64,000 nt of DNA from Candidatus Kaiserbacteria bacterium (GCA_016217965.1 JACRFI010000009.1:3144-67143), one strand, 5' to 3'; positions 9,366 to 50,750 are shown, numbered from the stretch's first letter. Numbers and translations are program-made. The notes: a model not told the origin generated them from the letters alone.

Positions 9366-9370
9366 GAAAT

Positions 9371-17470: not shown

Positions 17471-17483
17471 GCGCACAATGGTA

Positions 17484-19039: not shown

Positions 19040-19100
19040 ATTGAACGCAACACTACCATTAAAAGTGCGTCCATCATATAGTAATGCAGAAGCTATCCCT
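19040..19100. promoter_or_regulatory. Divergent promoter spacer between the nucleotidyltransferase-cupin fusion (minus) and the GT4 gene (plus)
   Basis: 61 bp between divergent start codons. Confidence 0.2.
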
Positions 19101-24018: not shown

Positions 24019-24082
24019 GCCACCCCACTCTCTTGCGTTTCTGCGTATAGACAAGACTGAGATTTCGTGGCAAAATCACGGC

Positions 24083-24829: not shown

Positions 24830-25611
24830 ACCCTCACGGATTTGATGTTGCTGGCCGCACATACGTAGTGATCGGAGGGGCAGGACTCATTGGCAGCGCA
24901 TTCTCTCGCGCTCTTGGAGAAGCGGGATGCAACGTTGTTATCGCTGACGCGAACAAAAAGAGAGGTGCGGAGCTCCTTCAGAGCATCCGCAGAAGTGGCG
25001 GGAAAGCCCATTTCGAGCGTGTCGATATCGGAAGCGCGTCTTCCATCGAGAAACTCTCGAAAAAGGTCGTCAAGATGTTCGGCAGCGTACATGGCGTTGT
25101 AAACGCTGCATATCCGCGGACTCCGAAGTACCCGCAGGCTTTTGAGAAAACGCCGCAAAAGGAGACGGAGAAAAACCTTGCGCTCATGCTCGGCAGCAAT
25201 TTTTCTATCGTCCGCGCATTTTCTGGGCCCATGAAGAAACAAAAACATGGTTCCATAGTGCTCCTCGGTTCCATCTACGGCATAGCGGCTCCCCGCTTCA
25301 GCATTTACAAAGGAACGGACATGATAAACCCTCCCGAGTATGCTGCGGCAAAAGGTGGCACCATCATGCTCGCAAAGTACTTCGCATCTCTTCTCGGGCC
25401 GTACAACATCCGCGTGAATTCTATTTCCCCCGGGGGCGTTCTCAATAACCAGCCCAAACCGTTTTTGAAGGAATACGCGAAGCACGCGAAGCTCGCGCCC
25501 GGAATGCTTGTGCCAGAAGATCTTGCAGGCGCACTCATCTTTCTTTTCGGAGATGCGTCAAAAAAGGTCACAGGGCAGAACATCGTAGTTGACGGCGGCT
25601 GGACGATATGA
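24826..25611 (+). CDS. Short-chain dehydrogenase/reductase (SDR)
   Basis: GGAGLIGSA, a YAAAK-type catalytic motif, and ATGA overlap with neuA-like. Confidence 0.8.
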   Translation: MNPHGFDVAGRTYVVIGGAGLIGSAFSRALGEAGCNVVIADANKKRGAELLQSIRRSGGKAHFERVDIGSASSIEKLSKKVVKMFGSVHGVVNAAYPRTPKYPQAFEKTPQKETEKNLALMLGSNFSIVRAFSGPMKKQKHGSIVLLGSIYGIAAPRFSIYKGTDMINPPEYAAAKGGTIMLAKYFASLLGPYNIRVNSISPGGVLNNQPKPFLKEYAKHAKLAPGMLVPEDLAGALIFLFGDASKKVTGQNIVVDGGWTI

Positions 25612-26651
25612 AAACGCTGAAGATCGGAAAACACGCCATAGGAAAAGGCGTCTTTATAATCGCAGAAGCCGGGGTTAACCATAACGGAAGACTTGATCTT
25701 GCCCTAAAACTTGTTGATGCCGCAGCTGAGTGCGGTGCGGACGCTATCAAGTTCCAGACCTTCAGAGCACCAGAACTCGTAACGAGTGCTGGAAAAATGG
25801 CAGCATATCAAAAAAGAAACACAGGAAAAAATGAGAGCCAACTCTCGATGCTGCGCAAACTCGAACTCCGCGAGTCATTGTATGCGCCGATCATCGCACG
25901 GTGCAAAAAGCGCAACATACTGTTTCTTTCTGCCGCGCATGGCGGATTTGCCAGCGTTGACCTTCTTGCCGCTCTCGGAGTCCCCGCATTTAAATTCAGC
26001 TCAGCCGACCTCACCAATCTTCCGGTCCTATCCCACGCTGCCAGATACAAAAAGCCGATGATAATCTCGACTGGCATGGCAACAATGCAAGAGATAGAAG
26101 AGGCAGTGCGCGCGATCAAAAAGGAGGGCAACGACAAGATCATCATCTTGCAATGCACGACGGATTACCCGACTGATCCTAAAGAAGTGAACCTCCGCGC
26201 AATGCAAACGATCGCCCGCCGATTAGGAACTCATGTCGGTTTCTCAGACCACACCTCTGGCATGCAAGCTGCCATTATGGCGGCAACGCTCGGCGCGTGT
26301 GTGATAGAGAAACATCTGACACTCGATAAACATATGCAGGGCCCCGACCACGCAGCATCAGAAAATCCTCGGGAGTTCCGAAAGTTTGTGGATGCCATCC
26401 GGCTTGTCGAGCCTCTGCTCGGCTCCCGCACGAAAAAACCAACAGTCTCAGAGAAAAAATATATCCCGCTGGTCAGAAAGAGCATTGTCGCAAACTGTTC
26501 TATAAAAAAGGGAGAACTGTTCACTCGCGATTCAATCGCGATAAAGCGCCCAGGAACCGGGCTCCATCCGCGCTTTTTCTCCAGATTCCTTGGGAAAAAA
26601 GCGAAACGGAACATAGAGAAGGACGCGCCCCTCTTGAGAAGCGACATATGA
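25608..26651 (+). CDS. neuB: Nonulosonic acid synthase (NeuB/PseI/LegI family, with SAF domain)
   Basis: FIIAEAGVNHNG, KFQT, C-terminal SAF-like domain; 347 aa. Confidence 0.9.
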   Translation: MKTLKIGKHAIGKGVFIIAEAGVNHNGRLDLALKLVDAAAECGADAIKFQTFRAPELVTSAGKMAAYQKRNTGKNESQLSMLRKLELRESLYAPIIARCKKRNILFLSAAHGGFASVDLLAALGVPAFKFSSADLTNLPVLSHAARYKKPMIISTGMATMQEIEEAVRAIKKEGNDKIIILQCTTDYPTDPKEVNLRAMQTIARRLGTHVGFSDHTSGMQAAIMAATLGACVIEKHLTLDKHMQGPDHAASENPREFRKFVDAIRLVEPLLGSRTKKPTVSEKKYIPLVRKSIVANCSIKKGELFTRDSIAIKRPGTGLHPRFFSRFLGKKAKRNIEKDAPLLRSDI

Positions 26652-27796
26652 AAAAGAAATCGATCCTTGTGATTACTGGCACGCGAGCCGAGTATGGCCT
26701 CTTGTATGAGACGATACAGGCGCTTCAGAAGAGCCAACGGCTTTCGATGCGACTTCTCGTTACCGGCATGCATACGGTACGGAAGTACGGGTATACGTTG
26801 CAGGGCATACGGCGCGATAACATTCCGATCGCCTGCGTGGTGCCGATTCACGAACACGACACAATGCTTCAGGCCTTCGCCAAAGAAGTGCTCGGGATTG
26901 ACGCATATTGCGTTAAAACTCGCCCCGACATGATCCTCGTTCTCGGCGATCGGGGCGAACCGCTCGCCGGCGCGGTCGTGGCGGCTAACCTCAATATCCC
27001 CGTCGCACATATTCACGGAGGCGACACGAGCGGCATAACAACAGCAGACGAACTTGTGAGGCACAGCATCACCAAACTTTCGCACTTACACTTCCCCGTC
27101 TCGCCTGCGAGCGCGAAACGGCTTCGTGCGCTGGGTGAAGAATCGTGGCGCATCCACATGCTGGGAGCGCCTGGGATCGAACACATCGCAAGCGCCCGCT
27201 TCCCTTCTCGCGCTGCCGTGGCCAGAAAGCACGGGCTCGACCCGCAGAAACAATGGATACTAGTCGTGCACCACCCGACGCCGTTTGAGAAGGTGCCAAT
27301 GGAAAAACAAATACGCCCTCTTCTTTCCTCACTCACATCGCAGCAAAGACATGAAGAAAAGATCATCGTCTATCCCAATACTGATACGGGATCCGCTGTT
27401 TTTATTCGCGAGATCGATCGTGTTAGAAATGAACCGCGCGTGCACGTGTATCCCAATTTGGAGCGTGATGAATATCTACACCTTTTCCGCCATAGCGCAT
27501 GCATAATTGGAAATTCAAGTTCAGGAATTATTGAATCAACGCCACTCCACGTGCCTTCAATAACCATCGGCAGCAGGCAGGACGGGCGATCTCGCGGCAA
27601 AAACGTAATCAGTGCATCGTACGACGCATCATCGATCGAACGAGCGCTTAGGAAGGCGCTTGGTGCCACATTTGCGTCGCGGACGAAGAACGCAAAAAGC
27701 CCATACGGGTCGGGAAATGTGGGCAGTTCTATCGTGAAGCGACTTGAGAAATACGTGTGCGATCCACGGTTGTTCCATAAGCGAGTCGCCTCGTAA
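26648..27796 (+). CDS. neuC: UDP-N-acetylglucosamine 2-epimerase (hydrolysing), NeuC/LegG-like
   Basis: Typical N-terminus ILVITGTRAEYGLL, plus HIHGGD. Confidence 0.9.
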   Translation: MKKKSILVITGTRAEYGLLYETIQALQKSQRLSMRLLVTGMHTVRKYGYTLQGIRRDNIPIACVVPIHEHDTMLQAFAKEVLGIDAYCVKTRPDMILVLGDRGEPLAGAVVAANLNIPVAHIHGGDTSGITTADELVRHSITKLSHLHFPVSPASAKRLRALGEESWRIHMLGAPGIEHIASARFPSRAAVARKHGLDPQKQWILVVHHPTPFEKVPMEKQIRPLLSSLTSQQRHEEKIIVYPNTDTGSAVFIREIDRVRNEPRVHVYPNLERDEYLHLFRHSACIIGNSSSGIIESTPLHVPSITIGSRQDGRSRGKNVISASYDASSIERALRKALGATFASRTKNAKSPYGSGNVGSSIVKRLEKYVCDPRLFHKRVAS

Positions 27797-27797
27797 T

Positions 27798-28595
27798 ATG
27801 CAAAAAAAACAAACTCTACAAAGCGCCATATTTCTAGGCCGAAAGGAGGGCGCGCTCGGCGCGCTCCAATATCTTTTACAGCAAAAGGTCGCGATCAAGA
27901 TGGTGGTGAATCCAGGGGGCACAGACCTATCACTCCGCTCTTTCGCGCAAAAGCACAAGATCCGATTCCTCACCGACGACAGGATGCTGTACCGCACGAT
28001 AGAAAGAAAAGATGCATCAATTCGCGCAGACCTCGTCATCTCATACTTGTACCCAAAAAAGATCCGCCGTCCGCTTATCGAACATGCAAAACTCGGCTGC
28101 ATTAACTTTCACCCCGCTCCTCTTCCCGAGTATAGGGGCCGCGCGGGCTACAACACCGCGATCCTAGAAAAAAAGAAACGATTCGGGGTAAGCGCCCACG
28201 TTATCGATTCGGAGACATTTGATAGCGGCCCCATCATAGAGGTTCTTCGCTTCCGCATTGACCCTTCACACGAAAGCGTTCTTTCTCTCGAAAGACTCAC
28301 TCAGAAAAAACTGCTCGAGCTGTTCAAGATCGTTATCGCACGTTATAAAAAAGGCGCAGCTATTAAAACGAAGCAAAATCGGGGCGGCCTCTACTTGACC
28401 GCAGAGGGCCTTGAATCCATGAAACGCATCCTGCCGTCAGATTCCGCAAAAGACATACACCGAAAGATCCGCGCATTTTTCTTCCCGCCATATCGCGGCG
28501 CGACCATTGAAATTAAAGGAGAGACATTTACACTGGTCGACGACGAGATGCTTTCCGAACTTGGGAAACTTCTCAAAACACAGCGACACGTATGA
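27798..28595 (+). CDS. Formyltransferase (Fmt/ArnA-N-terminal-like sugar N-formyltransferase)
   Basis: Formyl_trans_N fold with the HPAPLPEYRG motif; 266 aa. Sits where N-acetyltransferases sit in canonical Pse/Leg operons. A8 tract at codons 2-4. Confidence 0.75.
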   Translation: MQKKQTLQSAIFLGRKEGALGALQYLLQQKVAIKMVVNPGGTDLSLRSFAQKHKIRFLTDDRMLYRTIERKDASIRADLVISYLYPKKIRRPLIEHAKLGCINFHPAPLPEYRGRAGYNTAILEKKKRFGVSAHVIDSETFDSGPIIEVLRFRIDPSHESVLSLERLTQKKLLELFKIVIARYKKGAAIKTKQNRGGLYLTAEGLESMKRILPSDSAKDIHRKIRAFFFPPYRGATIEIKGETFTLVDDEMLSELGKLLKTQRHV

Positions 28596-29725
28596 AGATC
28601 TACCCTACGGCGCGGCCATATATTGGAGTACGTGAAGAAAGATATGTGCTTCAGGCACTTCGCTCCGGAGTTCTCAGCATTGGGCCGTTCATCGAAAGAT
28701 TCGAGAAAGCGTTCGCAAAACGCTACGGCGTAAAATATGCCTGCGCGGTTTCGAGCGGTACGGCAGCTCTCCACCTCGCGCTCCTTGCGGCAGGAATACG
28801 TGAAGGCGACGAAGTGATCACGTCCCCGTATTCATTCGTTGCCTCCGCAAACGCGATCCTCTACGTCGGCGCAAAGCCGATATTCGCCGATATAGATGCG
28901 CGAACCTACAACATCGATCCGCGCGATATCGAAAGGCGAATTACGAAAAAAACAAAAGCCATTATGCCGATCCACATTTTCGGCCAACCCGCAGACATGT
29001 CAGCTATTATGAGGATCGCAAAGAAGCATAAGCTCCTCGTCATCGAGGACGCGTGCGAATCACTGCTATCAGAATGGAAAGGAAAGAAGGTAGGAACGTT
29101 CGGAAAAGCCGGCACATTCGCATTTTATCCGAACAAACAAATGACGACCGGAGAGGGTGGCATGATCGTGACGAACGACGCGTCTATGGATGCGCTGTGC
29201 CGTAGTATGCGCAATCAGGGGCGTGGGGAGGATGCGGCTTGGCTTGACCACCCGCGCCTCGGATTCAACTACCGCATGGATGAACTCTCAGCTGCTGTGG
29301 GGTTAGCCCAAATAGAGAATATACACTTCCTTCTGAAGGAGCGCGCAAAGATTGCCGCGTGGTATACCGAATTCTTCAAGGCGCTTGCTGATGATATCGA
29401 CGTGCCGTATATTGCGCCGCACGCCTCGCATACCTGGTTTGTATACGTGCTTCGCCTCAAGAATGGAGGCATAGACCGCGATGCATTCATTCAGGACTTA
29501 GCCCGTAGGGGCGTGCGATGCCGGCCGTATTTGCCTTCGATCCACCTCTTTCAGTTCTATCGAAAGAGATTCGGTTTTGCAAAAGGCGACTTGCCTGTTT
29601 CAGAAGCAGTAAGCGCGGGGACATTTGCGATCCCCTTTTACATCGGGCTCAAAAAGAGCGATGTACGCAGCATCGTACGGACCATAGAGCAAACACTTGC
29701 GATCCATGAAAAAAAACACGTTTAA
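28592..29725 (+). CDS. DegT/DnrJ/EryC1/StrS-family PLP aminotransferase (PseC/LegC-like)
   Basis: SSGTAALHLAL; the PLP-binding Lys lies in the ...FYPNKQMTTGEGG... region. Confidence 0.9.
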   Translation: MKIYPTARPYIGVREERYVLQALRSGVLSIGPFIERFEKAFAKRYGVKYACAVSSGTAALHLALLAAGIREGDEVITSPYSFVASANAILYVGAKPIFADIDARTYNIDPRDIERRITKKTKAIMPIHIFGQPADMSAIMRIAKKHKLLVIEDACESLLSEWKGKKVGTFGKAGTFAFYPNKQMTTGEGGMIVTNDASMDALCRSMRNQGRGEDAAWLDHPRLGFNYRMDELSAAVGLAQIENIHFLLKERAKIAAWYTEFFKALADDIDVPYIAPHASHTWFVYVLRLKNGGIDRDAFIQDLARRGVRCRPYLPSIHLFQFYRKRFGFAKGDLPVSEAVSAGTFAIPFYIGLKKSDVRSIVRTIEQTLAIHEKKHV

Positions 29726-30662
29726 AAACAAAACAGTGGTGGTGACGGGAGGCACGGGAAGTGTCGGCAGTGAAATAGTGCGCCAACTTTTGAGGACAAA
29801 CGTCCGGCAGGTGCGCATCTTTAGCCGCGACGAGCACAAACAGCACGAGTTGAAACATGAGATAGGCGGCGACAAACGAGTTCGATTCCTCATCGGCGAC
29901 GTTCGAGACAAAGAACGAATGGACTTTGCATTCAAAGGCGTCGACATCTGCTTCCATGCTGCAGCCCTAAAACACCTGCCAATGTGCGAGTACAACCCGT
30001 TCGAAGCAGTAAAAACCAACATCATCGGTACGCAGAACGTGATAGAAGTTGCCATTCGCAATAATGTCGAGAAGGTACTGGCGATCTCCACCGATAAGGC
30101 AGCGGACCCGGCATCAGTCCTCGGCGCGTCAAAACTGATGATGGAGCGCCTCGTTACAGCCGCGAACGCCACAGTCGGAAAAACCCGCACGCGATTCGCG
30201 TCGGTGCGGTTCGGGAACGTCCTCAATTCCCGCGGCTCGGTCGTACCTATTTGGCATAAGCAACTTGAAGCGGGAAAGAATATCACCGTAACCGACCCGA
30301 GCGCCACGCGCTTTCTCATGGAAATATCGGATGCGGCTGGACTCGTATTCCAGGCACTCGACGTCATGCGTGGCGGAGAAATATTCGTGCTCAAGATGAA
30401 GCCGGCAGCACGCATCATTGATCTTGCAAAAGAGTTCTTGAAGAAGCATCCAAAAGGCGCCAAGAGAAAGATCGATATCATCGGCCTCCGCCCCGGCGAG
30501 AAACTGCACGAAGTCTTGATGACGGAAGATGAATCGGGACACGCCGTTGAGATCAAGGGGATGTTCGTCATTTTGCCGCAAAGCGCGGATCCCCACAGCA
30601 TGCCGAAACTAGACTACAAAAAAGCGAAACGCGCGCCCCGTGGCGCATATAAGTCTAACTAG
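29706..30662 (+). CDS. UDP-GlcNAc 4,6-dehydratase (PseB/FlaA1/CapD-type, Polysacc_synt_2)
   Basis: VVVTGGTGSVGSEIV, the FlaA1-like TDKAADP motif, and YGASKLMMER. An upstream in-frame TTG at 29697 is possible. Confidence 0.85.
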   Translation: MKKNTFKNKTVVVTGGTGSVGSEIVRQLLRTNVRQVRIFSRDEHKQHELKHEIGGDKRVRFLIGDVRDKERMDFAFKGVDICFHAAALKHLPMCEYNPFEAVKTNIIGTQNVIEVAIRNNVEKVLAISTDKAADPASVLGASKLMMERLVTAANATVGKTRTRFASVRFGNVLNSRGSVVPIWHKQLEAGKNITVTDPSATRFLMEISDAAGLVFQALDVMRGGEIFVLKMKPAARIIDLAKEFLKKHPKGAKRKIDIIGLRPGEKLHEVLMTEDESGHAVEIKGMFVILPQSADPHSMPKLDYKKAKRAPRGAYKSN

Positions 30663-32177: not shown

Positions 32178-32278
32178 ACCAATATTACGAAACTCGTCGA
32201 AGGCACACGTATTTTTGGCGGTATGAGCAACTCCTCCGTCAAAAATACGTGTGCCGAGAAAGAGTTTCGTAGTTCATA

Positions 32279-33559: not shown

Positions 33560-33562
33560 ACT

Positions 33563-34153: not shown

Positions 34154-34154
34154 A

Positions 34155-35165: not shown

Positions 35166-35168
35166 AGG

Positions 35169-37960: not shown

Positions 37961-38728
37961 TTAGATTCCCTTTGAATCATGATCAGGAGGCCTCTGCACA
38001 ATATTTTTATTTATGAGAACGATGTCCGGGCGCGTTCGTAGGAATGTCACAACGTCGAGCGTAGAAAAATCGGGGTTTGTCGGATACAGCGCTTCGTATA
38101 CCGATCTAATCATGTCGTAATCCTCTTTCGTATCGAGCGTGACCCGAAGGTCCGGCCATACGAGAGTAGCCGTAGCCTGTATCGAGCCCACTTTAAATTT
38201 TTCTCGCTGAGAACGAATGGAATACCCTGCGTGTTCGCGGAGTGCCCTTTCGGTATCAACTTCTGCGGCCTTCACCAAGACGGGGAAGGCATACACGCGC
38301 ATCCCAATGCCTATAGGAAATGTCTTATCCAGTTCGCTGTCGGTACAATCGTAACCACCCTCCTCTAGAAGCTCGACGAGTTGGTCTACAAAACGCCAGT
38401 CGATCAAGGGATCGTCAGACATGCCCTGCACGAGAATATCGGCGCCGTGTTCTTTGCCCGCTGCGACGATGCGGCCGAGCACATCTTCCTCGCTGCCACG
38501 GAATACCGAGCAGCCTATTCTTTTGCAGAGTTCTTCGATCGCGTCGTCGGCAGCATTTGTGGTCGTCGCAACAACAACTTCGTCAGTCAATCTACTCCTC
38601 CGATGCCGTTCTACCACATGCTCGAGGACCGGCTTCCCTGCCATGGGAAGCAGCACTTTTCCGGGCAGCCGCGTCGATGTCATGCGTGCCTCGATGGTTG
38701 CAACGACTTTTTTGCCGTTACTTACCAT
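37961..38728 (-). CDS. Cytidylyltransferase of the CTP_transf_3 family (SpsF/CMP-NulO synthetase-like)
   Basis: VATIEARMTSTRLPGKVL, ~255 aa; resembles B. subtilis SpsF and PseF. Confidence 0.7.
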   Translation of the reverse strand: MVSNGKKVVATIEARMTSTRLPGKVLLPMAGKPVLEHVVERHRRSRLTDEVVVATTTNAADDAIEELCKRIGCSVFRGSEEDVLGRIVAAGKEHGADILVQGMSDDPLIDWRFVDQLVELLEEGGYDCTDSELDKTFPIGIGMRVYAFPVLVKAAEVDTERALREHAGYSIRSQREKFKVGSIQATATLVWPDLRVTLDTKEDYDMIRSVYEALYPTNPDFSTLDVVTFLRTRPDIVLINKNIVQRPPDHDSKGI

Positions 38729-39935
38729 AGAACGCTATCGTGTTTTTCAGAATCTTCGCCTGCCTTTCTGCCCTCGCCCAATCCCAGTAGTTCGTTTTAA
38801 ACGCGAGGATTTGGGGCTGTATTTTTTCGGCAACGGGGCACAAGCCGATCTGCCACGGCTGGTGCTTGTGTTTGTATATTTCTCCAAGAACTTTCTCCTT
38901 CCCCCCGAGATTTCTCGTTGGTTTTTGGAACATGGGCTCAAGGTAGGAGAGTTTCCACGTCGCATAAATGCCATCGCCGCCAAGCTCCATGAACTTTTTT
39001 CGAAACAGGACCCATTCTATCGAAGGATCAACAAGCCGCACCGGAAAGGCCCAATAGGAATGCGTCGCGTACGCTGGTGTCTCTTGGACCTTCAGCCACG
39101 AACAATCCCCGATCGCCTCCATAAACAGCTCCGCAACATCGATGCGCCGATCTGCAAGTTCATCGAGGTGTTCGAGCTGCCCTAGCGCGACGGCGGCACA
39201 CAGCTCTGGCATGCGATAGTTGAAACCCATCTGGACATGCCGGTTATAATTCGGATTTTGTATATCATCTTTTTTCACAATACCCTTCGCGCGCGATAAG
39301 CTCGCATAGCCGAGTCCTCCGAAGCGGCGCACCGCATCAGCGAGCTTTGGGTCGTTCGTGCACACGACCCCTCCTTCACCCCCCGTCATATGCTTTGTCG
39401 ACTGCAAGCTGAAGCTGGACATCTGTCCTATGGTCCCCACCATGCGTCCCTTGTATTTTGCCAAATAACATTGCGCATCGTCCTCAATGACAACTAGATT
39501 ATGCTTCTTGGCGATAGCCATGATCTTGCCGATATCTGGAGAAAGGCCATATAAAGCAACCGGCATGATTGCTTTTGTGCGGGGCGTAATGCATTTCTCA
39601 ATTGAAGCGGGGTCGATTTGAAATGTTCCCTCCACGACATCGGCAAATACGGGCATCGCATCTGCTTGAAGTATCGCCATGCATGTCGCCGACATTGTAA
39701 GAGGAGTTGTTATGACTTCATCCCCGGCGCGCACGCCTGCGGCAAAAAGCGCAGAATGGAGAGATGCCGTTCCGTTCACCTGAGCAACGGCATACTTGGT
39801 GCCTACCTTTTTTGCGAATTCCTTTTCAAATCGTCCGAGTATCCCGCTGTTCTTCGAATTAGAGAAATCTGTCGCGAGGACTTCCTCGACATACCTACGC
39901 TCCGCTTTGCCGATACGGCGGATCTTTTTCTTCAT
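38718..39935 (-). CDS. DegT/DnrJ/EryC1/StrS-family aminotransferase (SpsC-like)
   Basis: NGTASLHSAL and ...LQSTKHMTGGEGG. Confidence 0.85.
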   Translation of the reverse strand: MKKKIRRIGKAERRYVEEVLATDFSNSKNSGILGRFEKEFAKKVGTKYAVAQVNGTASLHSALFAAGVRAGDEVITTPLTMSATCMAILQADAMPVFADVVEGTFQIDPASIEKCITPRTKAIMPVALYGLSPDIGKIMAIAKKHNLVVIEDDAQCYLAKYKGRMVGTIGQMSSFSLQSTKHMTGGEGGVVCTNDPKLADAVRRFGGLGYASLSRAKGIVKKDDIQNPNYNRHVQMGFNYRMPELCAAVALGQLEHLDELADRRIDVAELFMEAIGDCSWLKVQETPAYATHSYWAFPVRLVDPSIEWVLFRKKFMELGGDGIYATWKLSYLEPMFQKPTRNLGGKEKVLGEIYKHKHQPWQIGLCPVAEKIQPQILAFKTNYWDWARAERQAKILKNTIAFYGK

Positions 39936-39971
39936 TGCTGCAGGATACCATCGGCCTTCCCTCCCTGCCAC

Positions 39972-41024
39972 TCAAGCGCGTATGCCGTACATTGACCGCA
40001 ATTTCTTAAGTTGCGGCAAGAACTTCTTTGTGTTTTTTAAAAGGGATCCCCTCCCATCCGCAATACCGATAATGGCACGTGGTTTTCGTATGTCATCAAC
40101 AATTATTTCTCCGTATCCGCCGAGGAGACCGAGAGAAACGAGCCGTATGTTATGCCCTTTGATGGAACGGCGGCCAAGTGATTTTCCATAGTGTGCAGCC
40201 GTTTCGAGCAATGCAGAGAAGTTGTGTTTCTGGACCATTGATACGTCGATGCGATACACCACGTACTGCCCCCCTTTCGTTACGTCGCTTCGAAAACATC
40301 CCTTTCCGACATCGATGAGAATGGGCGCAGCGCTTCTATCCAATTCCTTGAGATGCTCACCTCCAATAATGCCGCGCGAATCCGCTGCTGCGATAACTGC
40401 GTTTGCCCCCTTACAGGCGTCTTTGATGCTTTTCGCTGCGCTGATTGGGGAAATTGTGTGTTCCGATTTAATGAGATTGAGGCCGGCTACAATAGTTTTT
40501 AACTTTTTCTGGTCGCGGCGATAGCCTCGCACATATGCACCGCGCTCCACGAGCTTCAACGCGATCTTGGCGCCGATGTTGCCAAACCCTATGACCGCGA
40601 TGTTCTTTCCCCCAACATCACCCGGTATCTGCCCCAAAAGAAAATCAATAGCCTCGACCGTGAGGTCATTGCCTTTGTACGTGACGATAGTCGATTTGCC
40701 CACTGCTTGCCGGACATGCCGCTCAATATTGCCGACATCATTTCTCCCATAATATAATTTCTCGACCTTCTTTTCTGAATCCAGAATGATGTAATCAACC
40801 TTGCCATCCACCATTCTCGCTATCCGGACTGCCGTAGAAACATCGCGGACGATAACCCCGCCATATACAAGCGTGTGTGTTTCCCGTAGCGGCGTCTCGT
40901 AATATCTGCCGCGCTCGAAGAGCCCGGAGGTGTTGCCTATCACAAATCCAGTTGGCCGCCTTCCTGCCCGCGCCTTCACATTTTTTACTATTCTCTCTAC
41001 CTTTTTCTGCATACCAGGCTGCAC
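39972..41024 (-). CDS. NAD(P)-binding Rossmann-fold oxidoreductase, function unknown
   Basis: GxGxxG motif IAVIGFGNIGAKIALKL. No further family assignment possible. Confidence 0.45.
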   Translation of the reverse strand: MQPGMQKKVERIVKNVKARAGRRPTGFVIGNTSGLFERGRYYETPLRETHTLVYGGVIVRDVSTAVRIARMVDGKVDYIILDSEKKVEKLYYGRNDVGNIERHVRQAVGKSTIVTYKGNDLTVEAIDFLLGQIPGDVGGKNIAVIGFGNIGAKIALKLVERGAYVRGYRRDQKKLKTIVAGLNLIKSEHTISPISAAKSIKDACKGANAVIAAADSRGIIGGEHLKELDRSAAPILIDVGKGCFRSDVTKGGQYVVYRIDVSMVQKHNFSALLETAAHYGKSLGRRSIKGHNIRLVSLGLLGGYGEIIVDDIRKPRAIIGIADGRGSLLKNTKKFLPQLKKLRSMYGIRA

Positions 41025-41025
41025 G

Positions 41026-43440
41026 CTAGATACTATCCCACTCTATTGGATGGTCTTTTTGTATCGCCCTCTTTGCGCGCCTGCCGATGACTATATCAAT
41101 ATATTTTGGGAGCACCCCACCACCCGGCCCTTTCACGGCAAGCATGTTCCTCGTTATTTTCTCTTCTTTTTTAATATCAACGGCAGCATACAAGCTCTTC
41201 TTGAAACGATTGATCGTCTCGCGCTCGCTCCCAAGTATCACCTTTTGAGGAGATCCTTTGATAGCAGGAATAAGATTGCTAAGCCGTACGAGTTCCTTCA
41301 TCTCTTCCGGGTCCGACGAAAGTATATGGTCCGGCCCCTCCATGAACCTATCCAATGTAAAATGGCGCTCTATGACTCGGGCGCCGAGGGCGAGGGCAAC
41401 CGATGCTGCGGTAAGTCCTATAGAATGGTCCGAGAATCCAACCGGAACTCCAAATGCCTTTCGGAGAGTTCCCATCACTTCCAAATTCATGTCCTGTGGC
41501 GCCGCAGGGTAGCTTGAGACGCAGTGGAGCAATATGAGATTTTTGTTCCCCGAATCTCGGACGACGTTCACCGCATCTTCAATTTGCCCGAACGTCGACA
41601 TGCCGGTCGAGATAATGAGCGGCTTCCCGGTCTTTGCAACTTTTTTGATGAGCGGCAGATTCACAAGGTCCATTGATGAGATCTTGTAGAACTGGACGCC
41701 GAGAGATTCGAGGAGGTCCACGCTCTTCTCATCGAAAGGCGTCGAGAAGATCTCGATGCCTTTTTTCTTCGCGTGCGCAAACATCGCCTCGTGGTCTTCT
41801 TTGCGCAGCTCGAGCCGAGATAGCATGCTGTGCGTCGACTCTTCGAGCTCTATTAATTCCTCCGCATACCGATTGCCCTTCACTTTCTTAGAAACCCGGC
41901 CGCTTGCTTCGTAGGTTTGGAACTTGACCGCACTGCAGCCAACCTCTTTTGCCTTGTCTATAAGTTCGAGCGCCAAGGCAAGGCTTCCATTATGGTTAAG
42001 CCCGGCTTCCGCAATAATGAACGCAGGATTCTCCGACGATACGACGTGCTTCCCGAGCCTGACCGATTGGTTAAATGAGAATGCCGTGTCCTCCTTGATA
42101 AGCTCGCGACTCTCCTCTCTCTCTTCCGAGGCGAGCCTTTCTGCGAGATCAGTCCCGCGAATATAAAGGATCTGCAAGTCGTCATATCGAAAGTCGCCCC
42201 CTGTCCCGATGCAGTAAAGCTGCTTGAAGCTGGCCAGGCGGCTACGCACCTCGACAAGCTCCGGCTCGCTTCCTCGCACAAGAAGCGGATATACGTACGG
42301 CAGCGAGACTACTGTTGCAGCTTCTAGTTCATCTTCCTTAGCGAGCCCAACTTTGACGATGTCCCGCATCGCGCGCTCTTGTATTTTTTTCGAATCAGAG
42401 GCATCGAGCGAATCTCCCTTTGTGTATGCTATCTCACAGGTAAGGACCGTCTTGTCCTTGGGAAATCCGTTAGCACAGAATTTCTTTTGCTCGCTCACAC
42501 GGTGGAAGAGTATGTCCGGTGCATCGTAGTAGAGGAAATTTGCTTTGCCGGGGATTGCTTCGCGCTTCTTAAGGGCAACAAACACCAATTTCGCACCTCG
42601 ATACCCGAGCGTATTTCTGATGCCAAGCTGTTTTGTGAGTTGCGGAATTGGGATGGTCGAGACGATCGTGTCATGAGGCGAGAGGGCGATCTTTTTTTTG
42701 CCCATCTCTACCCTGCTGATGATGCCATTTGAATGCGTAAAACCCGTCACTGCTGTTTTTAGAAGAAGTGTTCCACCGGCTTTCTTGAATTTCTCTGCCA
42801 TGCGCTCTAACACCTTGCCCGAGCCGTATTTTCCGACGGCACTCCACTGCCCCGCGTGAAAATGTTCATCACTTGTCCTAAATGTCACGCGCTTTGGAGC
42901 CCAGTTTGCGGTCATTTTTCCTATCGGCACGCCCCACAACTTCTGCGGATACCGAATAAAGAAATATTCCATGAGGGTCGGGCCCACCAACTCGCGGACA
43001 TATTCAGCATAGCTTTTTGCCCGCGCCCGGCGAGATTCGTCTAGGCGAGATAGCTCATGCACTATCTTTTTGCGCATCTCCGATGGGAATTTCTTTAAAG
43101 ACTCGAATGAAAGTGGGTAGTCGAAATACTGGTCGAATTTCTCGCCCTTAACATTCTTTCCCCAGAATTCGTTCTTGTGGAACAGGTCGCCATATTCTCT
43201 CTCCCATATTTCTTCCATCTTTTTGTCGGGAGTGTGGTAAATGTGCGGGCCGTAGTCGAGGTGTTTGAATTCCCTCCACGAGAAACTCCCCGCGAGCCCG
43301 CCGACCGCGGCCTCCTTTTCAATGAGGGTGGTTTTGACACCCAACTCCGCGAGCCGAAGTGCCGTTGCAAGCCCACTCATGCCCGCCCCAAGTACATACA
43401 CTTTTTTGGCCTGAGGAGAGTCCGCTTTCCGGCGATTCAT
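41026..43440 (-). CDS. Fusion protein: N-terminal UDP-galactopyranose mutase-like FAD enzyme (~430 aa) + C-terminal NeuB/SpsE-like nonulosonic acid synthase (~370 aa)
   Basis: N-terminus: VYVLGAGMSGLA (FAD GxGxxG), YGPHIYHT (compare Glf YGAHIFHT), C-terminal GGDFRYDDLQ (compare Glf GRLAEYKYYDMDQ). C-terminus: FIIAEAGLNHNGS, KFQT and SAF domain. Single uninterrupted 804-aa ORF. Confidence 0.75.
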   Translation of the reverse strand: MNRRKADSPQAKKVYVLGAGMSGLATALRLAELGVKTTLIEKEAAVGGLAGSFSWREFKHLDYGPHIYHTPDKKMEEIWEREYGDLFHKNEFWGKNVKGEKFDQYFDYPLSFESLKKFPSEMRKKIVHELSRLDESRRARAKSYAEYVRELVGPTLMEYFFIRYPQKLWGVPIGKMTANWAPKRVTFRTSDEHFHAGQWSAVGKYGSGKVLERMAEKFKKAGGTLLLKTAVTGFTHSNGIISRVEMGKKKIALSPHDTIVSTIPIPQLTKQLGIRNTLGYRGAKLVFVALKKREAIPGKANFLYYDAPDILFHRVSEQKKFCANGFPKDKTVLTCEIAYTKGDSLDASDSKKIQERAMRDIVKVGLAKEDELEAATVVSLPYVYPLLVRGSEPELVEVRSRLASFKQLYCIGTGGDFRYDDLQILYIRGTDLAERLASEEREESRELIKEDTAFSFNQSVRLGKHVVSSENPAFIIAEAGLNHNGSLALALELIDKAKEVGCSAVKFQTYEASGRVSKKVKGNRYAEELIELEESTHSMLSRLELRKEDHEAMFAHAKKKGIEIFSTPFDEKSVDLLESLGVQFYKISSMDLVNLPLIKKVAKTGKPLIISTGMSTFGQIEDAVNVVRDSGNKNLILLHCVSSYPAAPQDMNLEVMGTLRKAFGVPVGFSDHSIGLTAASVALALGARVIERHFTLDRFMEGPDHILSSDPEEMKELVRLSNLIPAIKGSPQKVILGSERETINRFKKSLYAAVDIKKEEKITRNMLAVKGPGGGVLPKYIDIVIGRRAKRAIQKDHPIEWDSI

Positions 43441-45434: not shown

Positions 45435-46850
45435 CTATTCCTTTCCTATACGCTCAAGCGCCGATCGCGCAAATGCTTTCATTTCCTCCTCCAGGCTCAT
45501 GCGCAGCACCTTATCACCCACGTTCGTGCGCACCCCAACAGTTTCGAGTGCCTTTAGAAATGCAAGTGCGCCCTCTTTCGTGACTTTTTTTCCCGCCTTC
45601 ACCTCTTCAAAGATCCGCTCGCAATCCTCGACGCTCTGCACTCGCACGACTCCCGGGCAGTCCCGGTACCACACAGCACCGAAGATGAGCGCATGCTTCC
45701 CCCGCACCACTGCCTCCACACCAACGCTGCCCGTGATCGTCGCGACTGCCAGGGACGCTTCGACAAGTTGCCGCACTGGCATATTCGTCGGAACCAGGCG
45801 TACGCGAGGAATGGCAGCAAGGCGACGATAGTAACCTCTGTAACGCGCGCTGCTGTAACGTGTTTTAGTGCGCAAGAGCCACTGCGACGGATGCTCCTTT
45901 ATGTAGAGCTCCCATCCTTCAGGCAGAGCTGCTGCAAGAGTCTCAGCTGCCAATATTTGGTCATGGAATACTCCTCCTTGCGGAGAAGAGCTTCTCTCTG
46001 GCTGGAAGTTGAGCGCAAAAAAGACGAACGGCTTCGTCAGGTCTGCCGGCCGCACCACGTCTCGATATTCACTGCGAAGATCTTTCACGACTGATCGGCT
46101 CACGAAATTCCAAACGAGCGGAAGAAGCGTGCCATTGCGGAGCGCCCGCAAGGCAGCAAAAAAACGGATGCGTGCCAGCGTAAAACCGGCTGCTCGGGCT
46201 TTTTGGTCTTGTATATACCAAATAGGCGTGTCCCCGCGAGATACGATTTCGTTCCAATACGTGTGCATTTCTTCGCCCAAGTCATCCACTGTAATGTTCT
46301 TCTTGAGATTCTCTCGCACCGCAGAAGTAAGTTCTGTATTTCCTTCCCACACATCGCTGTACCCCACGACGCGACCTGCGGCTAACGTCCCCTCAAACAT
46401 CACGCTCCGTATGCCACGAACTTTTGCAAGTTCCCACACCACATTGCTGTAAAGCGAATGGGGCACGTCGTTAAAAACGAGTGCATCAGGCTTCAATCTA
46501 TCGAGAACAGCGCTCCAGTAACTGAGCATCGTGTAGTAGACGTGTTTTCTTTCATCGACAGGCGCACCGTCGTAGTGTTTGTTCATCATCGTCAGGATTT
46601 CTGACTCTAGCCGATACATCGAGGCAATATCGTGCGCGTTCGGAGGAAAAAATACCTCATCCTTGTATGCCTCCGCTGGCTTCGCGTCCCACGCATCGTA
46701 GTGGTCATGGAACACAGTGCCTTTTGGTGTGAGGTGCGACACGGAATGCTCGCCCACCCAGTACACGATCTCGTGTCCGGCGTTCTCGATCTCGTCAAGC
46801 AGAACTTTTATTTCAGGGAGAGAGGTCGGCCAAACGAGCAGTATCTTCAT
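45435..46850 (-). CDS. Capsule_synth family protein (KpsS/KpsC-like), paralog 2
   Basis: ITGSVGVEAVVRGKHALIFGAVWYRDC, KEHPSQ, KPFVFFALNFQPE. Confidence 0.5.
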   Translation of the reverse strand: MKILLVWPTSLPEIKVLLDEIENAGHEIVYWVGEHSVSHLTPKGTVFHDHYDAWDAKPAEAYKDEVFFPPNAHDIASMYRLESEILTMMNKHYDGAPVDERKHVYYTMLSYWSAVLDRLKPDALVFNDVPHSLYSNVVWELAKVRGIRSVMFEGTLAAGRVVGYSDVWEGNTELTSAVRENLKKNITVDDLGEEMHTYWNEIVSRGDTPIWYIQDQKARAAGFTLARIRFFAALRALRNGTLLPLVWNFVSRSVVKDLRSEYRDVVRPADLTKPFVFFALNFQPERSSSPQGGVFHDQILAAETLAAALPEGWELYIKEHPSQWLLRTKTRYSSARYRGYYRRLAAIPRVRLVPTNMPVRQLVEASLAVATITGSVGVEAVVRGKHALIFGAVWYRDCPGVVRVQSVEDCERIFEEVKAGKKVTKEGALAFLKALETVGVRTNVGDKVLRMSLEEEMKAFARSALERIGKE

Positions 46851-46852
46851 GG

Positions 46853-48670
46853 CTATTGGTTGATAGAATAGACTTTGAAAAAGTACGACGCGGGATCTGC
46901 AAGAAGTTTTGATGGCGCTCCAGTTTCTACTACACGCCCATCCTTGAGGACAATGAGCTCGTCAGAATCCATGATCGTGGAAAGGCGGTGCGCGATCGCA
47001 ATAATAGTAAGGTGACCTTTCAGCTCCTCGATAACTCGCTTGATGTGGGCTTCCGCTTCGTTGTCGAGCGCACTCGTCGCCTCGTCGAGTATGAGAAGCT
47101 TGGGTTTCCGCGCCAACGCCCTTGCGATAACAATACGTTGGCGTTCGCCGGCAGAGAGCTTTATGCCGCGCTCGCCGACCAGAGTTTCAAGGCCGTCTTT
47201 GCAGCGCGAGATAAAATCATCAATGTGCGCCAGGCGTGCTGCCTCCCAAATATCTTCATCTGACACCGACTCGTCGTAGAAACAGATATTGTTGCGGATC
47301 GTGTCCTGAATGAGGAACAACTCTTGCGATACGTACGCGATATGCCGGCGCCAATCGTCAAGCGCTATCGTGCGGCTATCAACGCCGTCGAGCGTCACGG
47401 CGCCACTCGTGGGTAGGAGGAGCCGCAAGATGAGATCCACTGTCGTCGTTTTTCCAGAGCCCGATGGCCCCACGATGCCTACCATGCTTCCTTTTTTGAT
47501 CTCGAAGGAGGTGTCTTTCAGAACTTCTCGTCCCGATTCGTACGAAAAAGTAACGTGTTCGAATGCAAGCGCTCTCTCGAAAGAGAAAGGTGCGTCCCCG
47601 CTCGAGGGCTCGGGTGATCGCTGGGCAGTTTGTTCGTACTCAATGATGCGCGAAAGATGTGGGGCCAGCTCGCTCATATACTGCAGGTTGTTCTGCATCT
47701 GCTGCACATAGGTGAAAATGCGATAAATGAGATAGAGGACTGCGGGAAGCGCTGCAAACGTGATGAACGGAGTCTTGAATGCGAGAGCGAGGATGAGCGC
47801 AATATAGATGACTCCGATAGGCGCAACTATCTGCGATGCAACTTGCTGGAACATCTGGATGCGGAGCGAGTGAGCACGTATTTCTTCGAACAATCCCTCC
47901 CCCTTTTGTATCGCGCTCGCTTCCGCGCCGTATGCCTTCACTGTCTTAAGCCCGCCGACATGCTCGGTGACATGGTGCAAGGTGTCGCGGAAAACAACGG
48001 TGCGCAGCGTGGACGCTCGGTGTACCCGGTCCATAAGAGGCCTCAGTGTTACAAACGTGAGAAGCCCGAGAACGATGGTCGAGAGCGTTACGACCGGCGA
48101 GATAGAGAACGCAACGATAAGGTACATGATGAGGCTCGTGACGAGGGTGATAGAGAATACTATCTTTGTGAGAAGCGCGGTCGCGGACGGCACATCTATC
48201 ATGAGCGCCGTCTCAAGGTTGCCAAGCTTCTGTTTGAGAAGGTATGGCCACGAGGCCGAGAGGACCATCCCGAATAATTTCGAACGTGTCGTCCGCTCAT
48301 ATTCCATAGTGATGACCGCTTGTATGTACGTGAGAAGCAGCATCACGGCAGACTTGCCAATGAATAGAATGACGATAAGTGCAAGCATGTACCGTGGCAC
48401 GAACGGGACATGTATGAATGCAAAGAAATCTTTCAAGAGGAGCGACAGCGAATCCGTCGCCGCATTTTGCATGCCAAGAGCCGAGCTGAGAAGTGGGATG
48501 ACGGCGTTGATGCCAATGCCCTCCAAAATACCGCTGAGGAACCCCAGAAGCGTTAGAACTACTATCTGCGTCCGATACGGCCTGTACGCCTTCATCGCGA
48601 GGCGAAGGATCGACAACATCTGCCGGTATATATGGGCTGGTTCCGCCTTCATTGGAGTAAACCCTAGCAC
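46853..48670 (-). CDS. ABC exporter, fused permease + ATPase (MsbA/lipid or glycan exporter type)
   Basis: 6-TM N-terminal domain, Walker A GPSGSGKTT, signature LSAGERQRIVIARAL, Walker B ILDEATSALD. Confidence 0.9.
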   Translation of the reverse strand: MLGFTPMKAEPAHIYRQMLSILRLAMKAYRPYRTQIVVLTLLGFLSGILEGIGINAVIPLLSSALGMQNAATDSLSLLLKDFFAFIHVPFVPRYMLALIVILFIGKSAVMLLLTYIQAVITMEYERTTRSKLFGMVLSASWPYLLKQKLGNLETALMIDVPSATALLTKIVFSITLVTSLIMYLIVAFSISPVVTLSTIVLGLLTFVTLRPLMDRVHRASTLRTVVFRDTLHHVTEHVGGLKTVKAYGAEASAIQKGEGLFEEIRAHSLRIQMFQQVASQIVAPIGVIYIALILALAFKTPFITFAALPAVLYLIYRIFTYVQQMQNNLQYMSELAPHLSRIIEYEQTAQRSPEPSSGDAPFSFERALAFEHVTFSYESGREVLKDTSFEIKKGSMVGIVGPSGSGKTTTVDLILRLLLPTSGAVTLDGVDSRTIALDDWRRHIAYVSQELFLIQDTIRNNICFYDESVSDEDIWEAARLAHIDDFISRCKDGLETLVGERGIKLSAGERQRIVIARALARKPKLLILDEATSALDNEAEAHIKRVIEELKGHLTIIAIAHRLSTIMDSDELIVLKDGRVVETGAPSKLLADPASYFFKVYSINQ

Positions 48671-49640: not shown

Positions 49641-50750
49641 TCAAGCCAAAGATGCGAGTATCTTTTTTGCCCGCCCTTCCCATGAATATTGAAGGACTTT
49701 CTCGTAGGCACGTGCGGCTCGAGCGCCCGCACTTCGGTCAGAAAGCGCGGTTTCGATAGCGCGCGTGAGATCTGTGGGATCGTCGGCGCGAAAAAAGAAC
49801 GCTTCTTCATCAGAAAGAATTTCGCGCATGCTCGGCAGATCCGAGACAACTATCGGTATGCGCGATGCCATGTAGGTGAAGAGCTTGAGAGGAGACGTGT
49901 AACGCTTGGATATTTCCTCGCTGCCTGAATTGGGAAGAACAAGGACGTCTGCCGCAGCCTGGTTATCAGCTATCTCTCGATACGGCCTGAAGCCCACAAA
50001 CATGACCTGCGGATGGTGTTTCTTTAGGACGGAAATCTCTTCTGGCCCATTACCTATTGCAACAATTTGGACATCTCGGAGTAATTCTGCTGCTTTGAAG
50101 AGAGTATCTGTTCCCTTCCACGCATCTATGCGGCCAATGTACAACGCGATCTTTTTTCCCGGCGGGAGCTGAAGCCGTTCGCGAGCCGCATCTTTTTGCA
50201 CGACTCTCCGAAACATGGAAAGGTCGACGGCATCTGGCGCCACGATAATTTTGCCTGCATCAAGCCCGAGCGCAACGAGATCATCTTTAAGGCCATTGGT
50301 AATGGCAACAATGCGGGACGCACGCATGAGAGCTCTCACGAAAAGACGTTTCCACCCGTAGATGTGGTGCACTTCGATAATGAGCCTGTTCCTTCGCGGA
50401 GAAAATGCGAAGAGAAGCGGGAAATCGCGAAAGTAGAGCACGTCACCCTCCGATGCGATGCGGGCAAATTTTAGATTGAGAATGAACGCAAGCGTGTCGA
50501 GCCACATGATGAGCGTTGGAAACACCTCCGACCTGCTTCCAATGTCGGGAATCTTGAGAGTCCGTATAGTGAAATTCTTTTTTACGCCGTAGTACGCGAA
50601 TGGATCGGTATCTAAAAATATGCGCTTTTGTGGCACAACAAGCTGCACGTCGTGCCCAAGAGAGGCGAAAGCGCCGCACATGCTCATTATCTGGACGCCG
50701 TGCGCTTTCTCGGTGGGAATCCTAGCATTGGAAATGTATCGCACTCTCAT
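49641..50750 (-). CDS. GT4 glycosyltransferase
   Basis: GT-B fold and C-terminal E-x7-E region. Confidence 0.75.
   Translation of the reverse strand: MRVRYISNARIPTEKAHGVQIMSMCGAFASLGHDVQLVVPQKRIFLDTDPFAYYGVKKNFTIRTLKIPDIGSRSEVFPTLIMWLDTLAFILNLKFARIASEGDVLYFRDFPLLFAFSPRRNRLIIEVHHIYGWKRLFVRALMRASRIVAITNGLKDDLVALGLDAGKIIVAPDAVDLSMFRRVVQKDAARERLQLPPGKKIALYIGRIDAWKGTDTLFKAAELLRDVQIVAIGNGPEEISVLKKHHPQVMFVGFRPYREIADNQAAADVLVLPNSGSEEISKRYTSPLKLFTYMASRIPIVVSDLPSMREILSDEEAFFFRADDPTDLTRAIETALSDRSAGARAARAYEKVLQYSWEGRAKKILASLA

Follow-up and report, generated by a model that had tools for sequence, protein, structure and literature searches.

Two KpsS1-like proteins, probable nonulosonic acid transferases, and an adjoining ABC exporter in a glycan locus of Candidatus Kaiserbacteria

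Two paralogous proteins of the Capsule_synth family (PF05159), called A and B below, are encoded on a contig of a Candidatus Kaiserbacteria metagenome-assembled genome (MAG). The host belongs to the Candidate Phyla Radiation (CPR) or Patescibacteria, a group whose cell envelope is essentially uncharacterised (PMC5220378). The 64-kb stretch of DNA that was analysed is referred to as the window, and Pfam and NCBIfam scans took in essentially all of its open reading frames (ORFs) of at least 150 aa. These scans delineate a single glycan-assembly locus, spanning about 5.8-63.5 kb, in which the gene for A adjoins that of an ATP-binding cassette (ABC) exporter and which includes two modules for the biosynthesis of nine-carbon sugars, the nonulosonic acids (NulOs). 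In the collection of papers searched, none pairs 'Candidate Phyla Radiation' with 'nonulosonic'. The donor of A and B is most probably a cytidine monophosphate (CMP)-activated NulO rather than CMP-3-deoxy-D-manno-octulosonate (CMP-Kdo), as predicted from their full-length homology to the pseudaminyltransferase KpsS1 and from their setting within NulO modules, which is seen in the window as well as at about 80 further loci of the CPR. The features on which this account draws are collected in Table 1.

Table 1. Genes, modules and motifs discussed in the text (window positions, except where another CPR locus is named)
Feature	Position	Strand	Basis or remark
Protein A, soluble GT-B enzyme, PF05159/KpsS1 (GT118)-like, 471 aa	45435..46850	-	PF05159, profiles, AlphaFold2
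K318-E319-H320-P321 of A, (K/R)XHP CMP-binding motif	45888..45899	-	family alignment, KpsC alignment
Q283-P284-E285 of A	45996..46004	-	invariant in 51 family members; at the QXXXD/KpsS1 H-P-E position
Protein B, PF05159/KpsS1-like GT-B paralog, 511 aa	20285..21820	-	PF05159, profiles, AlphaFold2
K349-E350-H351-P352 of B, (K/R)XHP motif	20765..20776	-	K349 and H351 invariant
E314-P315-E316 of B	20873..20881	-	P315 and E316 invariant; QXXXD/H-P-E position
Fused transmembrane and nucleotide-binding domain ABC exporter, 605 aa (599 aa from ATG at 48652)	46853..48670	-	PF00664 + PF00005
GT4 glycosyltransferase	49641..50750	-	Pfam; recurrent neighbour upstream of the ABC-A pair
NulO module 1	23927..30662	+	Pfam, NCBIfam
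Module 1 cytidylyltransferase	23927-24829	+	Pfam
Module 1 short-chain dehydrogenase/reductase (SDR)	24736-25611	+	Pfam
Module 1 NeuB-type synthase	25608-26651	+	NCBIfam NeuB, 423.7 bits (cut-off 399.65)
Module 1 NeuC-type hydrolysing 2-epimerase	26648-27796	+	NCBIfam NeuC, 370 bits (cut-off 235.9)
Module 1 formyltransferase	27744-28595	+	Pfam
Module 1 PseC/LegC-type aminotransferase	28592-29725	+	Pfam
Module 1 PseB/LegB-type 4,6-dehydratase	29697-30662	+	Pfam
NulO module 2, same strand downstream of A, no NeuC	37961..43440	-	Pfam, NCBIfam
Module 2 FAD-oxidase/GLF-like domain fused to NeuB	41026-43440	-	Pfam, NCBIfam
Module 2 NAD-binding oxidoreductase	39972-41024	-	Pfam
Module 2 aminotransferase	38718-39971	-	Pfam
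Module 2 cytidylyltransferase, divergent	37961-38728	-	Pfam, NCBIfam
Wzy_C (O-antigen ligase/PglL-like) polytopic protein, C-terminal TPR	5869..8082	-	PF04932 (73 bits) + TPR; 14 transmembrane-like segments
B-type transferase beside Wzx, CPR loci without A and the ABC exporter	L085 5167-6660; L086 6277-7782

Two Capsule_synth paralogs related to KpsS1

Protein A is 100% identical to NCBI entry HY969_01645, from a Candidatus Kaiserbacteria MAG, and protein B to HY969_01525. The ORF of B extends over 20285-21835 when read from a TTG codon; the NCBI start, an ATG at 21820, gives the 511 aa considered here. A scores 33.2 bits (E 4.9e-8) and B 34.1 bits (E 2.6e-8), both above the PF05159 gathering cut-off of 20 bits, the match falling in the C-terminal, nucleotide-binding half of the model (about 126-278 of 310). 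The NCBIfam scan returned no match for A and only the sub-threshold models BFO_1060 and TIGR04396 for B. By BLASTP the two proteins share 30% identity over 317 aa (E 2e-24), and the profiles of their families align over 407 columns (E 1.9e-44). Separate sets of orthologs of A and of B occur in many CPR lineages, frequently on one contig, so that the two are ancient paralogs. The family A profile gathers 10,188 clusters at 50% identity with E<=1e-3, and 3,201 with E<=1e-30; the members listed for ten distant relatives bear neither taxonomic nor functional names. Neither A nor B contains transmembrane segments.

AlphaFold2 models made with the family alignments reach predicted local distance difference test (pLDDT) values of 92.9 for A and 91.4 for B and adopt a GT-B fold. 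The predicted layout comprises two alpha/beta domains, N-terminal and C-terminal, with a helical insert of about 90 residues between them, and terminal helices. Foldseek searches of the PDB returned generic GT-B proteins (E about 1e-8), among which the beta-Kdo transferase KpsC (8fux) had the best template modelling score (TM-score) for A of the matches listed. At the sequence level, KpsC chains were the only PDB matches of A and B at E<0.1 (E 5e-8 for B). An earlier note, made from the DNA sequence alone, had recognised here two Capsule_synth-type GT-B paralogs sharing the blocks KPFVF..P, KEHP and G-x-EA...GK..I.FG..(W/F)Y. The Pfam scores, the homology between A and B and the structural models all agree with this description, and every one of the blocks is found in both proteins.

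Retaining beta-Kdo transferases possess a QXXXD motif providing the Asp nucleophile, a Glu acting as base, and a (K/R)XHP motif with a His that protonates the CMP phosphate (PMC10148158, PMC12887879). The KEHP of A and B aligns to VKVHP of KpsC; throughout family A there is no variation at K318, E319 or P321, and at least 90% of the members conserve H320. At the QXXXD position A reads N-F-Q-P-E and B reads H-Y-E-P-E, the P-E pair being invariant in both families. In the pairwise comparison, PGQVESD of KpsC aligns with PLHYEPE of B; in A and B alike, Glu stands for Asp and the -4 position holds no Gln. It is the Gln of QXXXD that binds the Kdo carboxylate in beta-Kdo transferases. The carboxylate precedes the His by 35 residues in A (E285...H320) and in B, and by 34 in KpsC (D160...H194).

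KpsS1 is a retaining transferase of the 5,7-di-N-acetylated pseudaminic acid Pse5Ac7Ac and founded GT118 in the CAZy classification (Walklett et al. 2024, cited in PMC12887879). Its sequence came from two Acinetobacter baumannii chromosomes found by tblastn of a plasmid collection. These PLSDB records, NZ_CP077849.1 and NZ_CP104448.1, are chromosomes of 3.7-4.1 Mb filed as plasmids, and the gene table of one of them is nearly empty (45 features). The 480-aa product of 8125-9567 in the extracted locus (L088) was taken as KpsS1 because of its PF05159 match (53.5 bits), its Y131-E132 pair and its place in the gene order after psaA-F-like genes. That order, consisting of psaA-F-like genes, a 410-aa ORF and KpsS1, resembles that of KL2, and from this resemblance the 410-aa ORF is presumably wzx. 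A YE motif including residue 132, with Glu132 as the proposed base, has been described for KpsS1 (PMC12887879).

BLASTP aligns B to KpsS1 with 37% identity over 118 aa (E 6e-24). When compared by hhalign, a KpsS1 family profile of 30 homologs matches family A with 99.9% probability (E 9.4e-36, 441 columns) and family B with 99.95% probability (E 9.7e-38, 452 columns). KpsS1 outscores KpsC in both comparisons (B, 79 vs 35 bits; A, 49 vs 24 bits), which places A and B nearer to KpsS1. The 30 homologs share the invariant residues E132, H301, P302, E303, K336 and H338, and their invariant H-P-E-S-T-S aligns to Q-P-E-R-(S/T)-(S/T)-S in A and to E-P-E in B. The signature drawn from these homologs, x-P-E followed about 35 residues on by K-x-H, is present in A and in B. 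In these alignments A, B and KpsS1 are three about equidistant, full-length branches of one family with Glu, not Asp, at the predicted nucleophile position.

The ABC exporter, the NulO modules and their conservation in the CPR

The exporter gene adjoining A encodes the only ABC transporter among the scanned ORFs of the window. Its best PDB matches are ABCB1 and ABCB4, and its best NCBIfam models are HepA (350 bits, cut-off 725), MsbA (304 bits, cut-off 602) and PglK (202 bits, cut-off 1000). The protein is an ABCB/MsbA/HepA/PglK-like type IV half-transporter and not an ABC-2 transporter. The type IV class includes flippases of glycolipids and lipid-linked oligosaccharides; KpsMT and Wzm/Wzt use ABC-2 transporters. 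The predicted function of the exporter is the flipping or export of a lipid-linked glycan. A spacer of 2 nt separates its stop codon from the start of A (TAG-CC-ATG) and, from this spacing and the synteny described below, the exporter gene is co-transcribed directly upstream of A. The earlier note had placed A directly upstream of the exporter: the adjacency stands, and the order is the reverse, A beginning 2 nt downstream of the ABC stop.

With one genome scanned per species, 114 relatives of A came to light, of which the best 80 loci, all apparently from Patescibacteria, were used; a few titled 'uncultured Saccharibacteria' or 'Gammaproteobacteria' were treated as probable mislabelled Patescibacteria bins. 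The synteny set consists of 81 non-redundant loci (84 records) with flanks of 10 kb on either side, whose called ORFs were searched with the window proteins. Upstream sequence was sufficient in 71 loci. An ABC exporter gene stands directly upstream of A (at most 200 nt away and on the same strand) in 52 of them, further upstream within 3.6 kb in 10 and beyond that distance in three; none was found upstream in the remaining six. The functional tie between A and the exporter that had been proposed from the window is strongly upheld by this conservation. A NulO biosynthesis gene directly follows A in 39 of 67 loci, and 62 of 81 have NeuB or a CMP-synthetase no more than 10 kb away. A cytidylyltransferase of the module 2 type is encoded downstream of A in 41 of the 81 loci and upstream in five, and NeuC upstream in 17 and downstream in one. 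Precomputed annotations are in line with this arrangement for a Parcubacterium, for another Kaiserbacterium and for a complete Niyogibacteria genome.

B is present in 15 of the 81 loci; in 13 it is divergent and upstream, and in about eight of those it directly abuts the ABC gene. Tandem copies of A follow the exporter in 10 of the 81 loci (L031, L032, L034, L040, L045, L047, L050, L051, L062 and L079). Three further loci centred on B contain neither A nor the exporter, and in two of them a Wzx (Polysacc_synt) gene lies beside B (Table 1). Neither the 84 A-locus records (81 distinct) nor the window contain an ORF resembling Wzx. In the Niyogibacteria genome (L004, CP066691.1, 4659-7824), genes for an ATP-sulfurylase/kinase fusion and a sulfotransferase are located directly upstream of the ABC-A pair, which suggests sulfated surface glycans in that lineage.

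Module 1 probably leads to a legionaminic-type 5,7-diamino sugar and is the probable donor supply for B, a pairing made from proximity alone. A formyltransferase gene lies within this module and another is found by a NeuC-type epimerase gene in the complete Niyogibacteria genome (L004 227-1042), which hints at an N-formylated NulO. Module 2 is, by gene order, the probable donor supply for A. Its synthase gene (41026-43440) codes for an 804-aa protein combining a flavin adenine dinucleotide (FAD)-dependent amine-oxidase/UDP-galactopyranose-mutase-like region with NeuB and SAF, and the same FAD-NeuB fusion, of 800 aa, is encoded in another Parcubacterium (L002 13442-15844). Such a fusion is unusual for a NulO synthase and suggests a non-standard NulO product. 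Models of the KdsB subfamily give the module 2 cytidylyltransferase its highest score (74 bits, cut-off 255), against 30 bits for PseF. That the locus makes CMP-NulOs and has no Kdo genes, as previously stated, agrees as far as the window is concerned with the presence of two NeuB-family synthases, two CTP_transf_3 cytidylyltransferases and a NeuC-type epimerase, and with the lack of any KdsA-type (DAHP_synth_1) match in the window ORFs submitted to Pfam. Near module 2 lies a GDP-heptose-like gene set (31593-36185, minus strand), with genes for a HAD phosphatase (31593), a C-methyltransferase (32279), a SIS isomerase (33563), a GHMP kinase (34155) and a GDP-mannose-dehydratase-like protein (35169), which suggests the synthesis of a modified (deoxy or methyl) heptose.

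Nearly the whole window (5869-63465) is one glycan locus of at least 45 genes, so that a CPR host with a small genome devotes more than 50 kb of it to a single glycan locus with two NulO pathways. According to the Pfam scans, the locus encodes at least eight GT4 and four GT2 glycosyltransferases, a GtrA protein, a PMT_2 GT-C enzyme and a Wzy_C protein with TPR repeats; two sugar C-methyltransferases and many S-adenosylmethionine-dependent methyltransferases were also observed. Same-strand upstream GT4 ORFs of the type encoded at 49641-50750 number 15, in about 11 of the 81 CPR loci, and this enzyme probably builds the acceptor glycan. A homolog of the Wzy_C-TPR protein is encoded within 10 kb of A in nine of the 81 loci; the protein is a tentative candidate for moving the flipped glycan onto its final acceptor. 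Two large membrane proteins have no Pfam match, one of 607 aa with nine transmembrane-like segments (10803-12626, minus strand) and one of 571 aa with 13 (15833-17548, minus strand). Both are candidates for unrecognised membrane enzymes of the GT-C, polymerase or flippase type.

Three further observations concern other parts of the window. A 653-aa protein (60203-62164, minus strand) consists of a GT4 enzyme fused to UDP-glucose/GDP-mannose dehydrogenase domains. The 407-aa ORF at 18209-19432 (minus strand) contains a cytidylyltransferase-like (CTP_transf_like) domain and a mannose-6-phosphate isomerase C domain and shares about 390 nt with the convergent GT4 ORF 19041-20312 (plus strand); as its first domain begins only at residue 153, translation probably starts much further downstream. 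At the left edge of the glycan locus, the remnant of an IS200-like Y1 transposase gene (1613-2317, plus strand) lies beside secA (2369-4903, minus strand).

A predicted export route and its alternatives

The reading that we prefer, with a probability of about 0.6 for the whole, is that A and B add NulOs to a lipid-linked glycan and that the ABC exporter then flips the NulO-bearing glycan; donor, acceptor, flippase role and destination are predictions. As soluble cytoplasmic enzymes, A and B would take CMP-NulOs from the two modules; gene order pairs module 2, which lacks NeuC, with A and the legionaminic-type module 1 with B. Each would add its NulO to a lipid-linked glycan made by the nearby GT4 and GT2 enzymes. 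In catalysis, the His of K-E-H-P would bind or protonate the CMP phosphate, and the invariant Glu of x-P-E would replace the Asp nucleophile of retaining Kdo transferases. The ABCB/MsbA/PglK-type half-transporter, translationally coupled to A, would carry the NulO-bearing lipid-linked glycan across the single membrane and fill the role that Wzx may play in the loci with B only. Outside, the Wzy_C/PglL-like protein or a GT-C enzyme would hand the glycan to a surface protein or a wall polymer.

Several observations weigh against this route. In the Foldseek searches, E-values put uridine diphosphate N-acetylglucosamine (UDP-GlcNAc) 2-epimerases slightly before KpsC. Profile alignments give a low identity of A and B to KpsS1 (17-20%), and neither protein has the YE motif, the Glu132 site being F126-N127 in A and Thr-Tyr in B. 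The exporter fails each of the NCBIfam equivalog cut-offs, and the alternation of Wzx and ABC exporter is seen in the two B-only loci alone. No initiating phosphoglycosyltransferase or polyprenol-related gene was found in the window, and at least one Parcubacterium is reported to be devoid of isoprenoid synthesis (PMC5220378). As for the base, the change from Glu132 to Asn in A and to Tyr in B is consistent with its reported mobility among these families (PMC12887879).

Other roles of A and B have to be weighed against the same evidence. A, alone or with B, might polymerise a NulO homopolymer or a NulO-rich polymer in the cytoplasm, the ABC exporter moving the finished chain. Such a product would have analogues in the poly-legionaminic acid O-antigen and the rhizobial pseudaminic acid (Pse) K-antigens, and the tight coupling of the exporter gene to A, the tandem copies of A and the company of Wzm/Wzt(+Wzt_C), NeuB, NeuC and CMP-synthetase genes in which the closest non-CPR relative found, that of Rhizobium sp. 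WL3, is encoded are all in its favour. We nevertheless judge it unlikely: the exporter is of the ABCB type and not Wzm/Wzt, the number of GT4 and GT2 enzymes implies a heteroglycan, and KpsS1 contributes one residue to each repeat unit (PMC4487303). Another model takes up the NulO-based linker or repeat for ABC-dependent export that the earlier note had proposed: A and B would build a NulO-based glycolipid primer or linker directly on a membrane lipid, on which a polymer would be extended for export. KpsS and KpsC put beta-Kdo on lyso-phosphatidylglycerol, and membership of their superfamily, a pair of paralogs recalling KpsS and KpsC with B near ABC-A in the 15 loci, exporter relatives (MsbA, ABCB4) that move glycolipids or lipids, and a window without a phosphoglycosyltransferase lend this model some appeal. 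It nonetheless seems quite unlikely, given that A and B are single-module proteins closer to KpsS1 than to KpsC, that they do not conserve QXXXD and that homologs of B adjoin Wzx, which acts on polyprenol-linked units. The partners to be expected, KpsM, KpsT, KpsE and KpsD, were not found in the window, and the scanned ORFs have no ABC2_membrane, Poly_export or Wzz domains. Export of a KpsMT-type capsule was rejected on account of the wrong ABC class and the lack of KpsE and KpsD in the window. KpsS1 itself belongs to a capsule locus of A. baumannii described as Wzx/Wzy-dependent (PMC10320297), and presumably decorates a lipid-linked repeat unit. The KpsS/KpsC-like primer is therefore not retained; of the proposed NulO linker or repeat, it is the NulO donor that is supported, by the homology to KpsS1 and the NulO context.

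A direct role in protein glycosylation was also considered, in which A, B or both would modify a pilin or S-layer protein in the cytoplasm before secretion and the exporter would be functionally unrelated. Maf and FlmG glycosylate flagellins before secretion in this manner, and A and B have no similarity to either family. NulOs often decorate surface proteins (PMC5420450) and CPR cells depend on type IV pili (PMC5220378), but the adjacency of ABC and A, kept in different lineages at identities as low as 33%, points to a functional link and the neighbourhood offers no conserved candidate acceptor gene, which makes this role very unlikely. The PF05159 and KpsC matches, the affinity of the module 2 cytidylyltransferase for KdsB models and the SIS and HAD genes close by might be taken to indicate conventional retaining beta-Kdo transferases using CMP-Kdo. 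This is hardly credible when the KdsB-like score is so far below its cut-off, the paired synthases belong to the NeuB family, no KdsA was found in the window, both the Asp and the Gln of QXXXD are not conserved, and a Parcubacterium is reported without kdsA and lpxC (PMC5220378). Equally improbable is an assignment of A and B to TagF/TagB-like glycerophosphotransferases or to GT-B proteins other than transferases (epimerases or hydrolases), despite the annotation of some Bacillus homologs of the C-terminal region of B as CDP-glycerol glycerophosphotransferase family proteins, the epimerases at the top of the Foldseek matches and the CTP_transf_like gene at 18209-19432. KEHP, x-P-E and the full-length homology to a proven transferase speak against it. 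A TagF-like identity, which the earlier note had named as the result that would refute it, was rejected as neither protein matches PF04464 (TagF, Glyphos_transf) at E<=0.01 while both pass the PF05159 cut-off; an epimerase identity was rejected as Epimerase_2 stays below threshold (16.9 bits for B, cut-off 30.6) and the HP motif is present.

Returning to lipid-linked glycan modification followed by flipping, one might go further and suppose that the NulO added by A is a chain-terminating cap or recognition handle that licenses export by a dedicated MsbA-type exporter, through an obligate ABC-A pair across Patescibacteria. This extension is speculative and, in our estimation, unlikely. If true, it would represent a monoderm counterpart, with a type IV ABC exporter and nine-carbon sugars, of Kdo-capped O-antigens recognised by Wzt and of Kdo-primed capsules, and the main route to sialic-acid-like surfaces in these episymbionts.

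That a Capsule_synth protein can install a nine-carbon sugar is not new, because PF05159 proteins, which adjoin NulO modules in Acinetobacter and other bacteria, were predicted as NulO transferases (Gtr59, KpsS1 and KpsS2) in 2014-15 (PMC4487303) and KpsS1 has since been characterised (in 2024, as cited in PMC12887879). The 'undescribed variant' announced earlier has to be given up on these grounds, and no new pathway principle is revealed. Two large, divergent and apparently CPR-centred branches of the KpsS1-like family are new, as is a predicted catalytic base different from Glu132 of KpsS1. The conserved ABC-A-NulO operon across CPR lineages is new as well. Together with this operon, the label of probable NulO transferase provides a usable name for thousands of 'hypothetical proteins', and glycobiology gains new and highly divergent sequences, with another candidate base, for the GT118-type fold, itself newly defined. 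Sialic-acid-like surface decoration is perhaps a common trait of CPR episymbionts, which bears on host attachment and on the evasion of phages and immunity.

Comparison with known systems

A and B resemble KpsS1 in their length class (about 470-510 aa), in full-length homology, in the x-P-E(S/R)(S/T), Lys-x-His and TAG(W/Y)EA..GKP..FG..(W/F)Y blocks and in the position of the gene next to a NulO biosynthesis module. In both, the HP motif retains its Pro; the KpsS1 counterpart is K-D-H-K/x. The systems also differ in export, A being tied to an ABCB-type exporter in the CPR and KpsS1 to a Gram-negative Wzx/Wzy-dependent capsule locus. With KpsC and KpsS (GT107) and WbbB (GT99), A and B have in common PF05159, (K/R)XHP, the GT-B fold and a carboxylate 34-35 residues before the His. 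Unlike these beta-Kdo transferases, they do not conserve QXXXD, and they consist of a single module where KpsC has two. Their context is equally different, without a CMP-Kdo pathway or KpsMTED in the window scan and without an outer membrane.

Tanf_01245/TFUB4_00887 of Tannerella forsythia (BFO_1060 family) are pseudaminic or legionaminic acid (Pse/Leg) transferases of a general O-glycosylation system and cap a lipid-assembled glycan that is later moved to surface proteins (PMC5420450). They share the HP motif with A and B but are described as TagB-like with a DXD motif. B matches the NCBIfam BFO_1060 model weakly (27 bits, cut-off 200), and A has no significant match to it.

The closest non-CPR relative of A found, Rhizobium sp. 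WL3 WP_147885253.1 (39.5% identity, 193 bits), has HYQPE and KEHP and is encoded, like A, in a NulO locus with an ABC transporter. That transporter is a Wzm/Wzt system (ABC-2 with a Wzt_C carbohydrate-binding domain) of the classical Gram-negative O-antigen type, in contrast to the ABCB-type exporter of A. The Rhizobium locus also encodes NeuB, NeuC, a CMP-synthetase and WbuZ/HisH, and may represent a proteobacterial system for ABC-dependent NulO polymers. On the plasmid concerned (L089, NZ_CP042825.1, 7256-13105), three proteins of 449-513 aa without Pfam match flank the A-like protein.

ABCB-type flippases are already known in glycan pathways (PglK, Wzk, MsbA). The exporter described here resembles PglK of Campylobacter, Wzk of Helicobacter, MsbA and HepA in its fused ABC_membrane and ABC_tran domains and in its location within a glycan assembly operon. 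Its fixed head-to-tail coupling to a NulO transferase gene is, to our knowledge, not a described feature of the PglK, Wzk, MsbA or HepA systems.

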